From Escherichia phage isim: a DNA stretch of 64,000 nucleotides. Positions 1-13,200 of the stretch are shown here, one piece after another. Position 1 is the first letter of the stretch; every line of letters begins with the position of its first letter. A program made the position numbers and the translations under genes. The notes under the pieces are model-generated. The model saw nothing but the letters and a program-made list of their open reading frames with translations, made no database searches and was not told where the DNA came from. The stretch is from sequence record MN850597.1; one strand, 5' to 3'.

Positions 1-242
1 TAAACCTGAATTATTTATAGAAAATACCACAACACCCATTAAGTCTTTGATTTTACACACAAATCCTACAGATATTCAACCTCCATATTTAACATACTTG
101 TAACATATTCCATACTCTACCTGTCTGATCAACTCACCCAACTACATCCTCCATATTTCCCCTGTCTGTACTACTCCTGCCCCGCCGGGAGTCCCGTCAT
201 ATCTGGCTTTCCAGCAAATATCACACCCACAAATATCATTGC

Positions 243-399
243 CTGAAGAGGGTTTCATCCCATAATACATGCCTTACCTGAAGAGCGCTTCATATACCAC
301 GTAAATTTTTTAATTGCCCCCTCCCCGCCGCCGGAGAGGTTGGCTTTTCCCACACAGACCTGAAGAGTCAGCCAGAAATATCTGAAGAGGGTCTAGTTC
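243..399. repeat. Four spaced copies of CTGAAGAG (243, 278, 359, 392) in non-coding DNA
   Basis: Direct reading: cctgaagaggg / acctgaagagcg / acctgaagagtc / atctgaagaggg; no ORF. Confidence 0.6.
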
Positions 400-945
400 T
401 GCCCTGTCATGAGCGGTAGCGACTGGAGTGCTGCCAGGCGGACGAAATGGGAATACTTCTCATTCTTATAACAATTCTCAAATATCGAGGCAGTGAGGCA
501 AATTAATAGGTGAGGCCGTTCACACAATGGCACAACATTTGCAACCTATTTTGTGGGGCTGAATGAGAATACCTATCATTGTGAGAATAGTTATCATTAC
601 GGGCAATTTAACATAATACCCATTATGCGCACCACTGGCGATACATACAGGGATTGATAACATGAGTTACCGTTTACGCACATAACAATTATATTTCTTA
701 CTATTTGTGTGGGATATAGTTAGCAGCCAATAGATTAGATATTAACCTGCGGACTTCTGACCGTCCAGACGTCTAAACGCCCACACAACAAGGGTTATAC
801 ATACACAACTGAATGTAAACAGGGCCGCAAAAATGCTACCATACCAGTTTGTAAATTTTCATGCAGCACTTGACAAAGAGGAGAAAAACTTGTCTGACAC
901 CTTATACACTTTCGACACAATAACGACTGTTATTATTTCATGTTT

Positions 946-1015
946 CACTGTTCACGTATAGATTGTTCCCGCATAGACTGTTTACGCCTGGATAGTTTAC
1001 ACCTTGACTGTTTAC
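946..1015. repeat. Iteron-like direct repeats GACTGTTTAC (976-985, 1006-1015) plus degenerate copies (946-955, 993-1000)
   Basis: Direct reading of three to four copies within 70 bp; non-coding. Confidence 0.6.
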
Positions 1016-1090
1016 ACAGATAGGATAAGCCATGACATTCGTTTGCATGAAAACAATTAGCAAGTTAACAATTAACAAGTTAATAATATA

Positions 1091-1155
1091 TGACATAATA
1101 TAAAAGCAGGGCAACTATTAGCAGATCTATAGTTGCCTTGCTTATTATGTCATGA
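1091..1155. repeat. Large imperfect inverted repeat (about 27-bp arms, 10-bp spacer) with extra GGCAACTAT and CCATTCGTTTGCAT copies nearby
   Basis: Left arm tgacataatataaaagcagggcaactat, spacer tagcagatct, right arm atagttgccttgcttattatgtcatga; CCATTCGTTTGCAT recurs near 1030 and 1262. Confidence 0.6.
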
Positions 1156-1937
1156 TTAACTGAATACAAGGCAACTATGATCTGATTAATAGATTGCAGA
1201 CAAACTATCACGGGGGTGATGGTTACTGCTTTTATATTATGTCGCGACTCCGTCGCGCCATGCCATTCGTTTGCATAGTTGCCTTATTGTTACAGATAAA
1301 ATAATTGTATTGTTAATTATTTCTTATCTTTCTCTTAGTCATCTAATGATTCCAGTCAGTATAGTAATGTACAGTAAACATTAGACGACTAAATATTTCT
1401 CTGTTTATGATAACTCACCGTGACAATTCCAGACTGTTTACGAAAAATGTTGACACCTGGGCCGATTTATGTTATGCAATTTAAACGAATAATTATTTTA
1501 TGCAGGTATTGACTATTCCATTATTCTATGGTTGGAATAAATGCTTAGCAGACTATAGAATGGTGAGCGTACGTAAATTCTGAGATCTGGCGGCTATAGT
1601 TATACTCGATTTTTCACGTAGAACACGCTTTTGTGAGTGTGTAAGTGTATGACTTATAAAGATTTTTAGTTGTTGACAAGATATTGAAGATGTGCATCAG
1701 GTTAAATTTTGTGCAATAGCGGCATTACGTGCAATTTTGAGAGAGAAAACGGGTAAAAATGGACCTGCTACCACACAATGAAAAATTATGCAATAGTTAT
1801 TTTACATGTATGTTTGTACAGTGTGTGGGATTGATGGCTAGACAATTATTCCACTTGCCAGGCTGGGCCGTTTGTGGTAGGAGGAAGAGCAGACAAAAAG
1901 AAAGGGGCCTAAGCCCCTTGATAATTCAGTTAAAAAA

Positions 1938-12473: not shown

Positions 12474-12656
12474 TTTTGTACCTCCTCTTCAATTGTTACC
12501 TATCCTATAGCATAGGCCCACCAGGTTTGCAAGCCTTCATTATCTCCTACCTGGTCAGTTAGGCCCTGCCAGGCTGGCCCCGCCAGGTTGCAGCGGTCAG
12601 CGCATCAGGTTAGAAATTTTTTTTTTGAAAAGTGTTGACAGCGGCCCCGCCAGGTG
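12337..12656. repeat. Cluster of GGCCC(C/T/A)(G/A)CCAGG repeats (12337, 12515, 12562, 12576, 12643; one more at 5485)
   Basis: Direct reading of a 12-13-mer recurring five times within 320 bp. Confidence 0.55.
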
Positions 12657-12900
12657 GCAAAATACACCTATCGAAAGGACGGCAGGCACCGGTGACGGGG
12701 GAGACAACCACCGGGGATGGGCGCTGCATGAAATGAGAACGATTATCATTATCGTCTAAAAATTTATGCAAAAACTTCTTGCTTTCTTTGTCCTGTGTGT
12801 TACTATAATAACAAGCCGGGGCAGTAGGGGCCGGGAGACAATCACCGGGCCTGCCCGTTATTCTGCAAACGAGAATGATTATCATTCAAAATTCTAAATG
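12635..12900. repeat. Two tandem copies of a structured non-coding unit (core GGGAGACAAYCACCGGG ... CTGCA-AAA-GAGAAYGATTATCATT), each with a Fur-box-like palindrome
   Basis: Units at about 12647-12760 and 12812-12900; plus-strand TTGACA at 12635 and TATAAT near 12809 precede them; GAGAACGATTATCATTATC at 12735-12753 matches 16/19 of the classical Fur-box consensus. Confidence 0.5.
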
Positions 12901-13059
12901 AGAACTCCTCGCATTTAATAAATTTAATTAGCACGCTAATTACCCTCCGTAACAATTTCCTATAAAATAGTCTCCACTAAAATATTCCCATATAGAAATT
13001 TTAAAAATCCATTTCTGAAAACGAAAAATCGATTTCGTCCCCAAAAATTTCAGGTCGAG

Positions 13060-13200
13060 AGCCGGAACGATTTCCAGAAAATCCGATTCAGAAAACGAAA
13101 AACAGATCGAGTACTGAGAAATTTATCGAGAAAAATTTTCAGAAAATCCAAGCCATGAAATGAAAAGTAGATCGAGTACTGGAAAAATTGTACCGCAACT
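13060..13200. repeat. AT-rich tandem direct repeats (about 52-bp unit: CAGAAAATCC ... GAAAA ... AGATCGAGTACTG ... GAAA)
   Basis: Two near-complete copies plus a partial copy; no ORF. Confidence 0.5.

Follow-up and report, generated by a model that had tools for sequence, protein, structure and literature searches.

The DNA analysed here (the window) comprises 64,000 nucleotides of the Escherichia phage isim record MN850597.1 and belongs to a Vequintavirus, that is, an rV5-like E. coli myovirus; it matched 120 phage records at 85-96% identity, all of them Vequintavirus. Positions 1-1900 contain no credible open reading frame. The longest within 1-1750 is 58 aa, and the four that were tested (58, 47 and 46 aa, and a 76-aa frame at 1759-1989) had no PHROG match, while three flanking genes matched PHROGs at 1e-47 to 1e-95. 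The initial annotation had described 1-1750 as non-coding, and we also find it to be free of genes, but the gap is longer than was described. In relatives it extends about 523 bp further upstream of position 1, to the last gene on the + strand, and on the right it is limited by the intrinsic terminator at 1902-1919. The gap sits between convergent gene blocks, corresponding to two transcription units of rV5 (genes 163 and 164), and the homologous stretch was labelled "non-coding" in the rV5 type paper. No tRNA or tmRNA was detected in the whole window, and Rfam 15 gave no match at E <= 1 within 1-2600 and none at the gathering score in the whole window. A sigma-70 scan returned 15 promoter-like sites against 9.2 expected, the sole convincing candidate being 1072-1099, whose -35 region is unconserved. 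The features of the locus are as follows.

1-240, + strand: C-rich, G-poor, structure-free tract (minimum free energy just -3 to -6 kcal/mol per 120 nt)
173-212, + strand: GC-rich hairpin ACTCC..GGAGT followed by GGCTTTCC, read from the sequence
243, 278, 360 and 382 (243-389), + strand: four copies of (C)CTGAAGAG
309-340, + strand: second GC-rich hairpin, CCTCC..GGAGAGG, followed by TTGGCTTTTCC
401-436: hypervariable left junction (conservation 0.76, 67 inserted alignment columns)
432-439, + strand: left boundary motif TGCCA^GGC, with a proposed top-strand nick at 436/437
437-894: direct terminal repeat (DTR) of 458 bp, assigned by homology; one copy in MN850597.1, expected at both ends of virion DNA
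448, 564 and 582: TGAGAATAnnTATCATT motifs within the DTR, plus a partial copy in inverted orientation at 468-480; weakly Fur-box-like (448-598)
604-632: island CAATTTAACATAATACCCATTATGCGCAC, conserved in three genera in pairwise alignments with KPP-1 and PVP-SE1
848-894: right-end conserved island TTTGTAAATTT ... CTTGACAAAGAGGAGAAAAACTTGTC, from alignments with relatives, KPP-1 and PVP-SE1
892-899, - strand: right boundary motif TGTCA^GAC (bottom strand), with a proposed bottom-strand nick at 894/895; invariant in 13 phages
895-945: TGACA(C/T)AAT-type short repeats of variable number, directly adjoining the DTR
946-1020, + strand: head-to-tail array of about five 15-bp iterons, consensus TRGAYTGTTTACRCM
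1029-1276: module bounded by 20-bp direct repeats GCCATG(A/C)CATTCGTTTGCAT at 1029-1048 and 1257-1276
1052-1087, + strand: tandem AACAATTAACAAGTT, 2.4 copies, very AT-rich (GC 0.27-0.29) and variable among relatives
1092-1243: compound palindrome of about 150 nt (cruciform or multi-hairpin), its 18-bp outer arms (1092-1109 and 1226-1243) matching perfectly
1243-1257: short hairpin CGCGAC-TCC-GTCGCG
1290-1901: AT-rich spacer (GC 0.25-0.40, skew +0.28 to +0.39)
1432-1441: isolated extra iteron copy
1902-1919, - strand: intrinsic terminator at the end of the leftward (early) gene block; Murica and Gotham have a terminator annotated at the same site

The segment at 437-894 is 95-98.7% identical to the annotated or mapped DTRs of vequintaviruses (458 or 459 bp), with exact end-to-end boundaries. 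In the records of Gotham, EdH4, HdK5, ECP2309 and YN3, both the first 459 and the last 459 bp match it at 95-96%, and Gotham, whose 459-bp repeat_region is annotated, aligns with window 437 at its position 1 and with window 894 at its position 137025. The records of EdH4, HdK5, ECP2309, YN3, bov10K2 and bov25_3 all start at window 437, and each of the first four has the DTR segment twice, once from its position 1. The Pr121LW and ECP2303 records begin or finish at window 894. The EdH4 record terminates in ...AAAAACTTGTC, 459 bp after GGCGGACG. The record of CM1 contains two tandem DTR copies, which is the assembly signature expected from joining a linear assembly at its ends. Published papers and GenBank records already place a terminal repeat here: Gotham was reported with 459-bp terminal repeats and a fixed packaging start (PMC7471380), and EdH4 and HdK5 with 458-bp redundancies (PMC6563267). 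The comparison with the genome ends of related phages that the initial annotation had proposed thus places the mapped ends at window 437 and 894. Vequintavirus ends were mapped by read coverage in the relatives and those of MN850597.1 are placed by homology alone, and the ends of some deposited relatives may have been set by analogy and not measured independently.

Very probably, therefore, this is where the genome of a Vequintavirus ends or, in concatemers, where its units join. By homology, 437-894 would be the 458-bp DTR that the packaged linear DNA carries at each end, with 1-436 lying immediately inward of the right end of the virion genome and 895-1901 immediately inward of the left. Concatemers formed during replication would contain 1-436, the DTR and 895-1901 without a break, as MN850597.1 does; its DTR is single and internal because the sequence was opened at a point other than the physical ends. 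The rV5 type paper, working from low-coverage Sanger data, described its genome as circularly permuted. A circularly permuted or headful genome is disfavoured, since identical fixed ends occur in at least eight records from several groups and two papers report defined repeats. The initial annotation had offered a replication origin, a packaging or terminal region, or an injection-control region as alternatives. A packaging or terminal region is what DTR homology upholds, and a T5-style injection stop is not. The terminal reading had been built on the repeats, and it holds for the region but not for the repeats themselves, all of which lie outside the DTR, in its flanks; the DTR at 437-894 had been overlooked.

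No indel occurs in the DTR, which diverges by 0.050 where third codon positions in the neighbouring genes diverge by 0.084-0.14; both of its edges adjoin hypervariable, indel-rich DNA. Motifs related to TGAGAATAnnTATCATT are also found inside the DTR of KPP-1. Reading these motifs (TGAGAATA..TCATT) as Fur boxes was rejected, as their match to the consensus (13-14 of 19 positions) is at background level and is equalled by 36 sites in the window.

The left flank (1-436) has a mean pairwise divergence of 0.068, and 1-400 evolves more slowly than fourfold sites. The tract at 1-240 has a GC skew of -0.56 to -0.77, and within it 78-157 contains 26 C and 3 G, a C/G ratio of 8.7 that places it in the top 0.6% of 80-nt windows. 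On this composition the + strand of 1-240 is a possible Rho-utilisation zone for rightward read-through transcripts. The two GC-rich hairpins are copies of an ancient duplication of about 145 bp (repeat families D12 and D20), and an indel hotspot with up to 69 inserted columns in relatives lies directly upstream of the second. The four copies of CTGAAGAG reported at 243-399 were recovered; the motif occurs eight times in the window compared with 2.3 expected, a count reached in 0 of 100 shuffles. Copies 1-3 are kept in 12 relatives and copy 4 is variable. Next to the DTR the 16-mer CKACWGGAGYGCTGCC is present once (420-435), and twice in several relatives.

On the right, the GACTGTTTAC iterons noted at 946-1015 proved to be part of the five-unit array, for which Tandem Repeats Finder (TRF) gave a 15-bp period. 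Exact copies of GACTGTTTAC occur only at 976, 1006 and 1432 in the whole 64 kb, with degenerate copies at 946, 961 and 991. Counted by eye, rV5 has about 10 iterons, FV3 about 6 and this phage about 5. TRF likewise returned the tandem AACAATTAACAAGTT that had been noted. With a divergence of 0.277, 895-1090 is the most divergent block of the region. The single DTR copy is bordered by arrays on both sides, the 16-mer and CTGAAGAG on the left and the TGACA repeats and iterons on the right. We found no description of flanking repeats for Vequintavirinae in the literature. The anatomy described here adds some new detail to a known genome-end and packaging region. The hypervariability of the arrays could equally mean that they are under no constraint. 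Beyond the palindrome, the spacer at 1301-1900 diverges by 0.081-0.101, about the neutral or synonymous rate, and its + strand is G-rich over 1500-1900 (G/C ratio up to 3.6), so that leftward transcripts would be C-rich.

The inverted repeat that had been noted at 1091-1155 is real and forms part of the larger compound palindrome, which has a fold z-score of -8.3 to -11.2. Three sites of the 11-mer AAGGCAACTAT lie inside it in alternating orientation (1108+, 1129-, 1168+) and a fourth follows at 1275-1285 (-); there are 10 occurrences of this 11-mer against 1.3 expected. The CGCGAC-TCC-GTCGCG palindrome was found where the outer right arm ends, and the two CCATTCGTTTGCAT copies, exact at 1263 and with one mismatch at 1035, turned out to be the cores of the 20-bp direct repeats that bound the module. 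Of 13 phages, 12 have the palindrome in almost unchanged form, and it evolves at a lower rate than synonymous or fourfold sites. In FV3 it is cleanly deleted: this phage lacks precisely the 228 bp between the starts of the 20-bp repeats, a loss that the flanking repeats explain, and the palindrome is dispensable in FV3. It could form a hairpin or cruciform with a part in replication or the processing of ends, or else give rise to a small structured RNA. No covariation signal was obtainable for the palindrome, as 12 of the 13 sequences are essentially identical there. Reading the 228-bp module as a MITE is rejected for now: its 18-bp terminal inverted repeat has no further match in the 64 kb, and apart from the 20-bp repeats the module shows no target-site duplication.

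The same short motif, TGYYA^RRC, can be read at both DTR boundaries in inverted orientation, and this polarity would permit fill-in. The left and right motifs of the window match at 6 of 8 positions (P = 0.0045 against random site pairs) and those of KPP-1 (TGCTA^GAC and TGCTA^AAC) at 7 of 8 (P = 0.0005), two P values that are not independent since the lineages are homologous. The opposite-polarity control gave 4-5 of 8. The boundary motif is retained in 13 of 13 vequintaviruses, but it is short and degenerate, with about 16 chance copies of TGYYWGRC expected in 64 kb by arithmetic (not by a count of the sequence). Models for T7 need fillable 5' overhangs (PMC4281155), and nicks placed according to the motif here would have the polarity to provide them. 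Five ORFs of 350 aa or more, scanned at 41-64 kb, included no terminase; the gene for the large subunit would lie outside the window.

We infer a T7-like, "exact short DTR" mode of packaging and propose the following mechanism. A terminase-associated nuclease would nick TGYYA^RRC on the top strand at 436/437 and on the bottom strand at 894/895. The nicks, 458 nt apart, would leave recessed 3'-OH ends, and strand-displacement synthesis from these would duplicate the DTR and provide a full copy for both daughter genomes. More speculatively, the flanking arrays (420-435, 895-945 and 946-1020) may be accessory binding or loading sites for packaging or end-processing proteins, with copy number drifting through slippage and recombination at the ends, and the C-rich, G-poor tracts together with the terminator may insulate the junction from both convergent transcription units. 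In its widest form the proposal would hold for at least three genera of Vequintavirinae: a nickase acting on one 8-bp motif, TGYYA^RRC, inverted at the boundaries, would make the exact DTR, the TGAC arrays would serve as loading sites, and the palindrome immediately inward of the left end, conserved in architecture but differing in sequence, would as a cruciform or hairpin serve end duplication or a terminus-proximal origin. We put this wider form forward tentatively, as a possibility and not as the expected outcome.

The closest parallels are Gotham (MT682716), EdH4 (MK327930) and HdK5 (MK373780), which share with the window the first and last DTR bases, the gap and the convergent blocks and differ from it in the copy numbers of the flanking arrays. 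Their reports give the repeat length only, with nothing on flanking elements or cut sites (PMC7471380, PMC6563267). In the Klebsiella phage KPP-1 (Mydovirus) convergent blocks are similarly separated by a gene-poor gap of 1.8 kb that contains a 514-bp DTR; this DTR was defined by two-fold coverage and classed as T7-type by PhageTerm in the KPP-1 paper, from whose DTR coordinates we set this locus, and the records DP and KP12 confirm its boundaries. For the Salmonella phage PVP-SE1 (Seunavirus) we predict a 516-bp DTR in a 2.2-kb gap from identical boundary sequences that distance apart. Both phages conserve the boundaries (left G[C/T]GCTA/GACGGAC, right TTGTGTT/TAGCAA) and the internal islands, although across the whole DTR their DNA is only about 40% identical to that of the window. 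They lack the 15-bp iteron array and have Fur-box-like ATGATAAnnnTTATCAT palindromes in its place. A large palindrome (z = -11.1) also occurs in KPP-1, a few hundred bp in from the left end, alike in architecture and unrelated in sequence. A pattern scan of IMG/VR returned two further loci only. The 101-aa gene upstream of the gap is placed elsewhere in Seunavirus and Mydovirus, and a synteny walk gave no route.

Among better-known systems, the T7/T3 junction resembles this one in having an exact short DTR that is single in concatemers and has to be duplicated at packaging, for which staggered-nick or hairpin models exist in T7/T3, and in having arrays on either side; Dunn and Studier are said to have described in 1983 that the SRL and SRR short-repeat arrays of T7 flank its terminal repeat. 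The T7/T3 repeat is 160-230 bp, whereas the window DTR is three times longer and has no sequence similarity to it, and T7/T3 genes run left to right whereas here they converge on the ends of a myovirus genome of about 137 kb with host-type promoters. Arrays of short motifs also adjoin the terminase cut in lambda (the R sites of cosB) and P1 (the pac hexamer clusters). As in these phages the arrays here stand beside the cut, and the repeats carry TGAC, the half-site of the right boundary motif. Lambda and P1 make cohesive ends or headful cuts, however, whereas here there is an exact DTR, the sites are putative and their copy number varies among close relatives.

Other functions for the sequences around the DTR have to be weighed. 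Outside the DTR the region may be mostly unconstrained spacer, the arrays being by-products of slippage, end repair or recombination with no binding role and transcription termination being all that matters. The hypervariable 895-1090, the roughly synonymous rate of 1301-1900, the gain and loss of entire hairpin modules among phages, and the C-rich, G-poor tracts that face both incoming transcription units, together with the terminator at 1902-1919, are what such a spacer would look like. Yet the array motif is kept as copy number changes, with iteron-like TGAC cores persisting in relatives, fourfold sites change faster than the palindrome block and 1-400, and a DTR gap of about 2 kb without genes is kept in three genera whose genomes are otherwise tightly packed, which makes this explanation doubtful, although it deserves serious consideration. 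A replication origin appears unlikely. Here the iterons would bind a phage initiator, the AT-rich DNA (1050-1150 and 1300-1400) would melt and the palindrome would extrude as a cruciform, the position at the end being incidental or coupling replication to end formation. The five tandem iterons adjoin the lowest GC of the region (0.25-0.29, with 0.27-0.29 at 1001-1150), the strongly structured palindrome carries its four copies of AAGGCAACTAT and evolves more slowly than synonymous sites, and no origin has been mapped in any rV5-like phage, the skew analysis of rV5 having been inconclusive. Against this, the iteron zone is the most variable part of the region in both sequence (0.277) and copy number (about 5 to 10), 1-2000 holds one weak DnaA-box match (51-59) with a window count below chance, no initiator gene is adjacent, FV3 is viable without the palindrome module, the skew switches are explained by the direction of transcription, and KPP-1 has a palindrome with but a single iteron-like site.

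The palindrome block might instead encode a structured sRNA of about 125 nt, transcribed from an extended -10 TGACATAAT (1091-1099) and ending at the hairpin at 1203-1224 with its T-rich tail, the other repeats being regulatory sites. The promoter-like TTAACA-16-CATAAT preceded by TG (10 of 12 matches, 1072-1099), the terminator-like hairpin on the + strand, an RNA fold z-score of -8.3 and the near-invariant sequence in 12 phages all fit such an RNA. It nevertheless seems distinctly unlikely, given that no Rfam family was matched even at E <= 1, that the -35 region is unconserved in relatives, that a DNA palindrome folds equally well on either strand, and that the block is missing from FV3; we found no transcriptome for Vequintavirinae in the literature. 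T5 has a terminal repeat of about 10 kb, with pre-early genes between the end and the injection stop, and control of injection of this type, in which repeats close to the end that enters first hold up transfer until the early proteins have been synthesised, is highly improbable here. The dense direct and inverted repeats in non-coding DNA near a genome end, and the direct terminal repeats, do recall the T5 stop region. However, the stretches from each end to the repeats are free of genes, transcription of both neighbouring blocks runs towards the ends, and two-step transfer has not been reported for this phage group; with a gene-less repeat of 458 bp, compared with the roughly 10 kb of T5, a first-step transfer would have nothing to express.

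How exact-DTR packaging starts and finishes is less well understood than the cos or headful strategies (PMC13595956, a 2026 review). The inverted boundary motif, the sharp switch between conserved and hypervariable DNA at the DTR edges and the natural deletion in FV3 provide testable handles on this process, and they are relevant to a large group of therapeutic phages of E. coli, Klebsiella and Salmonella. If the nickase-motif reading is true, it would offer a sequence-defined and genetically tractable model of end formation in exact-DTR phages. The DTR also accounts for the "non-coding box" left unexplained in the rV5 type paper, and the genome in MN850597.1 should be opened at the DTR, its true length including a second 458-bp copy.

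In a megablast search, positions 1-1750 matched 120 phage records with identities of 85-96%; almost without exception these are Vequintavirus, a genus of rV5-like E. coli myoviruses with genomes of ~137 kb. The stretch is the counterpart of the interval between genes 163 and 164 of rV5, which the rV5 paper drew as a grey box marked "non-coding" with no function proposed; its authors expected bidirectional terminators there and found none, and they put the change in skew at this point down to the direction of transcription (PMC3606486). In relatives the final + strand gene stops ~523 bp before the window starts, and an intrinsic terminator at 1902-1919 closes the first - strand gene. Two convergent transcription units thus enclose a gene-free gap of ~2.4 kb. 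The statement of the initial annotation that there is no credible ORF holds, as the longest is 58 aa and no region ORF tested had a PHROG match, with the three neighbouring genes matching at 1e-47 to 1e-95.

Judged by where its relatives end, window 437-894 is the direct terminal repeat (DTR), because the mapped or deposited ends of those phages coincide with 437 and 894. Gotham has 459-bp terminal repeats with a start sequence identical in all virions (PMC7471380), and EdH4 and HdK5 have terminal redundancies of 458 bp (PMC6563267). The Gotham record annotates a repeat_region at 1-459 and 136567-137025, and by BLAST its position 1 falls on window 437 and its last base on window 894. With 437-894 as the query, the segment was found at record positions 1-458/459, in two places per record, in EdH4, HdK5, ECP2309, YN3 and Gotham; Pr121LW opens and ECP2303 closes with its reverse complement, and the bov10K2 and bov25_3 records likewise begin at window 437. 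The terminal bases of EdH4 (...GAGAAAAACTTGTC) lie 459 bp past GGCGGACG. In the record of Shigella phage CM1 the DTR is present as two tandem copies, the pattern left when the two ends of a linear assembly are joined. On this alignment of ends, window 1-436 is the DNA immediately within the right end, and 895-1901 that immediately within the left end. This supports a packaging or terminal region, one of the options that had been proposed. For close relatives, the identity of this region as the genome-end/packaging region with a short DTR was known before and can be found annotated in GenBank; what is added here is where exactly the flagged repeats lie with respect to the ends, a boundary motif read as lying in inverted orientation, the sharp switch from conserved to hypervariable sequence at the boundaries, and a palindrome whose architecture is common across genera.

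The type-species paper called the rV5 genome circularly permuted (PMC3606486), contrary to which later papers and records give fixed ends with a 458/459-bp DTR (PMC7471380, PMC6563267); for the majority of vequintavirus records in the databases, the start is still an arbitrary point. The tandem DTR copies of CM1 (L008 1501-5121) are ~59 bp apart, and in phage I29 (L009 1562-2266) window 111-653 is duplicated with a 60-bp inverted piece; both duplications look like assembly artefacts at genome ends. Nineteen GenBank records (MG0656xx), named "Campylobacter phage" with C. jejuni given as host and several of them fragmentary, have 86-97% identity to E. coli vequintaviruses across the region, and this host naming looks like contamination or mislabelling.

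The initial annotation observed correctly that the region is special, and the repeats that it named are all present. None of them, however, lies inside the DTR; all flank it. The features are as follows.

243, 278, 360 and 382: CTGAAGAG (8 copies in the window, 2.3 expected)
946-1020: 15-bp iteron array of ~5 head-to-tail units, from TRF
976, 1006 and 1432: exact copies of GACTGTTTAC, with no other in 64 kb
1029-1048 and 1257-1276: 20-bp direct repeat with CCATTCGTTTGCAT as its core
1052-1087: tandem repeat of the 15-bp AACAATTAACAAGTT, confirmed by TRF
1092-1243: compound palindrome with perfect outer arms of 18 bp
1902-1919, - strand: intrinsic terminator closing the first - strand gene and the leftward block

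The inverted repeat first described is real and belongs to the larger compound palindrome. Sites of AAGGCAACTAT occur inside and just past this palindrome. The window has 10 of them where 1.3 would be expected, and a stretch of 180 bp contains four, in alternating orientation.

When the window is aligned to 12 relatives, no column of the DTR contains an indel, and column conservation there is 93-99%. Conservation drops to 0.76 at 401-450, with 67 inserted columns, and to 0.52-0.79 at 901-1100, with ~210. Mean pairwise divergence is 0.050 in the DTR, 0.053 in the palindrome block, 0.068 in 1-400, 0.081-0.101 in 1301-1900 and 0.277 in 895-1090. Set against three neighbouring genes (0.084-0.140 at third codon positions and 0.076-0.217 at fourfold sites), the DTR and the palindrome block appear to be under constraint, 1301-1900 looks to be evolving approximately neutrally, and the DNA adjoining the right boundary is by this yardstick hypervariable. 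Among relatives, CKACWGGAGYGCTGCC varies between one and two copies directly ahead of the left boundary, and directly after the right boundary the TGACA(C/T)AAT-type repeat is present two to five times. The 15-bp iterons number ~5 here vs ~10 in rV5 (counted by eye), and hairpin modules of 33 and 48 bp are present or missing as wholes. Small hairpin modules vary in presence near 1049-1150 in the relatives' loci L006, L007, L012, L013, L014, L016 and L017; the 48-bp module reads TTTCGCTGGCTATGCCAGGTGACCTTTGGTCACCCCTTCGGGTGTTTC and the 33-bp module TTAACA(C/T)CCT(C/T)GAGACGAAGGC..., a related form of which occurs in YP-6 at a location unlike that in rV5 and LL12.

In Klebsiella phage KPP-1 (Mydovirus) the DTR is 514 bp long, as determined from twofold coverage and PhageTerm, which classed it as T7-type (PMC9862379). 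It lies within a 1.8-kb gene-poor gap with convergent blocks on either side, and its boundaries are confirmed by the records DP (with a repeat_region annotated, in two places) and KP12. The KPP-1 and window DTRs are just ~40% identical overall, with the ends and a few islands conserved: GTGCTA|GACGGAC in KPP-1 vs GCTGCCA|GGCGGAC in the window at the left end, and CTTGACAAGGAGAGAGAATTGTGTT| vs CTTGACAAAGAGGAGAAAAACTTGTC| at the right. PVP-SE1 (Seunavirus) shares the boundary sequences, which there are separated by 516 bp and lie within a gap of 2,241 bp. At ~310 bp from its left end, KPP-1 also has a compound, perfect-armed palindrome of 206 nt (z = -11.1); that of the window, at ~200 bp from the left end (z = -11.2), is like it in architecture but unlike it in sequence. 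Four ATGATAAnnnTTATCAT palindromes stand in and around the left-end palindrome of KPP-1 (L022 3940-4165), matching the Fur consensus at up to 16/19, at a site that equals the 15-bp iteron position in vequintaviruses.

Read on the strand that gives the nick in 5'-to-3' sense, the window boundaries are TGCCA^GGC (left, top strand) and TGTCA^GAC (right, bottom strand), a 6/8 match, and those of KPP-1 are TGCTA^GAC and TGCTA^AAC, a 7/8 match. Random pairs of window sites reach at least 6/8 with P = 0.0045 and at least 7/8 with P = 0.0005, the opposite-polarity control gave only 4-5/8, and the motif is kept in 13/13 vequintaviruses. Nicks on opposite strands, 458 nt apart, at the two DTR boundaries would leave recessed 3'-OH ends, and strand-displacement synthesis would then give a full repeat to each daughter genome; this staggered-nick scheme is classic and has been discussed for T7 (PMC4281155). 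We place the chance that staggered nicking at the motif and fill-in make the ends somewhat short of even, in view of the shortness of the motif, the kinship of the two lineages and a possible one-base error in the deposited ends. The arrays at the right boundary contain TGAC, the half-site of that boundary, which suggests that they may bind the same machinery. Repeated elements adjoin the lambda cosN and P1 pac cuts, and the window arrays would resemble these.

The palindrome module is nearly invariant in 12 phages, folds equally well on both strands, as DNA or RNA, and is the sole significantly structured segment across the whole gap. FV3 lacks precisely the 228 bp between the 20-bp direct repeats (window 1029-1276; L015 2568-2587), a deletion that takes out the entire module; going by this record, the module is dispensable for FV3. 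The deletion could be natural or a cloning artefact of Sanger-era sequencing. It is improbable that the block is an sRNA gene, as might be proposed from an extended -10-like element (1091-1099) and a terminator-like hairpin (1203-1224), given that the -35 varies among relatives and Rfam gave no match.

Iterons, AT-rich DNA and palindrome together look right for an iteron-type replication origin, and the vequintavirus group has no mapped origin, which leaves room for one here. Against this, the iterons are poorly conserved among relatives, one weak match in 1-2000 is all that the region has of DnaA boxes and no initiator gene adjoins it, so that we regard an origin as quite unlikely. The DNA-injection control that had also been suggested fares worse: a T5-like injection-stop region is very improbable, since the DNA between the ends and the repeats encodes nothing. 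That the region outside the DTR is mostly spacer fits the neutral rate of 1301-1900 and is a lesser but real possibility, although it leaves unexplained why a 2-kb gene-free gap around the DTR is retained in three genera.

Within the genome-end region, the + strand of ~1-240 is extremely C-rich, G-poor and nearly without predicted structure (C/G ratio up to 8.7, top 0.6% of windows; MFE -3 to -6 kcal/mol per 120 nt), and across 1500-1900 the leftward-transcribed strand is C-rich (ratio up to 3.6). Because a C-rich strand faces each of the incoming units, both might meet Rho-utilisation-like tracts before the repeat, and the leftward block would additionally meet the intrinsic terminator. The 139-aa gene adjoining this terminator (1938-2357, - strand) belongs to phrog_12277, of unknown function, and is annotated in Murica as "Rel homology domain"; Gotham, nomo, WM and FV3 are without it, and there an 87-aa gene comes straight after the gap. 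Outside the window, ~2.1-2.4 kb upstream of position 1, a 101-aa protein (relatives' locus L001, 570-875) has 42-58% identity across Vequintavirinae genera and is annotated in some records as a transcriptional regulator or double-stranded DNA-binding protein; the place of its gene relative to the genome end differs between genera.

A further ORF-poor island of ~650 bp (12560-13200) lies within the - strand early block, with no Rfam match and no tRNA. It comprises two tandem + strand units, each combining a Fur-box-like palindrome and a GC-rich hairpin with a promoter-like site (TTGACA-17-CAAAAT with TG at 12635-12663; TACTATAAT near 12801). Agreement with the E. coli Fur consensus is 17/19 for the palindrome at 12735-12753 (0.03 expected) and 15/19 for that at 12871, and the units could be iron-regulated sRNA-like genes or operators.
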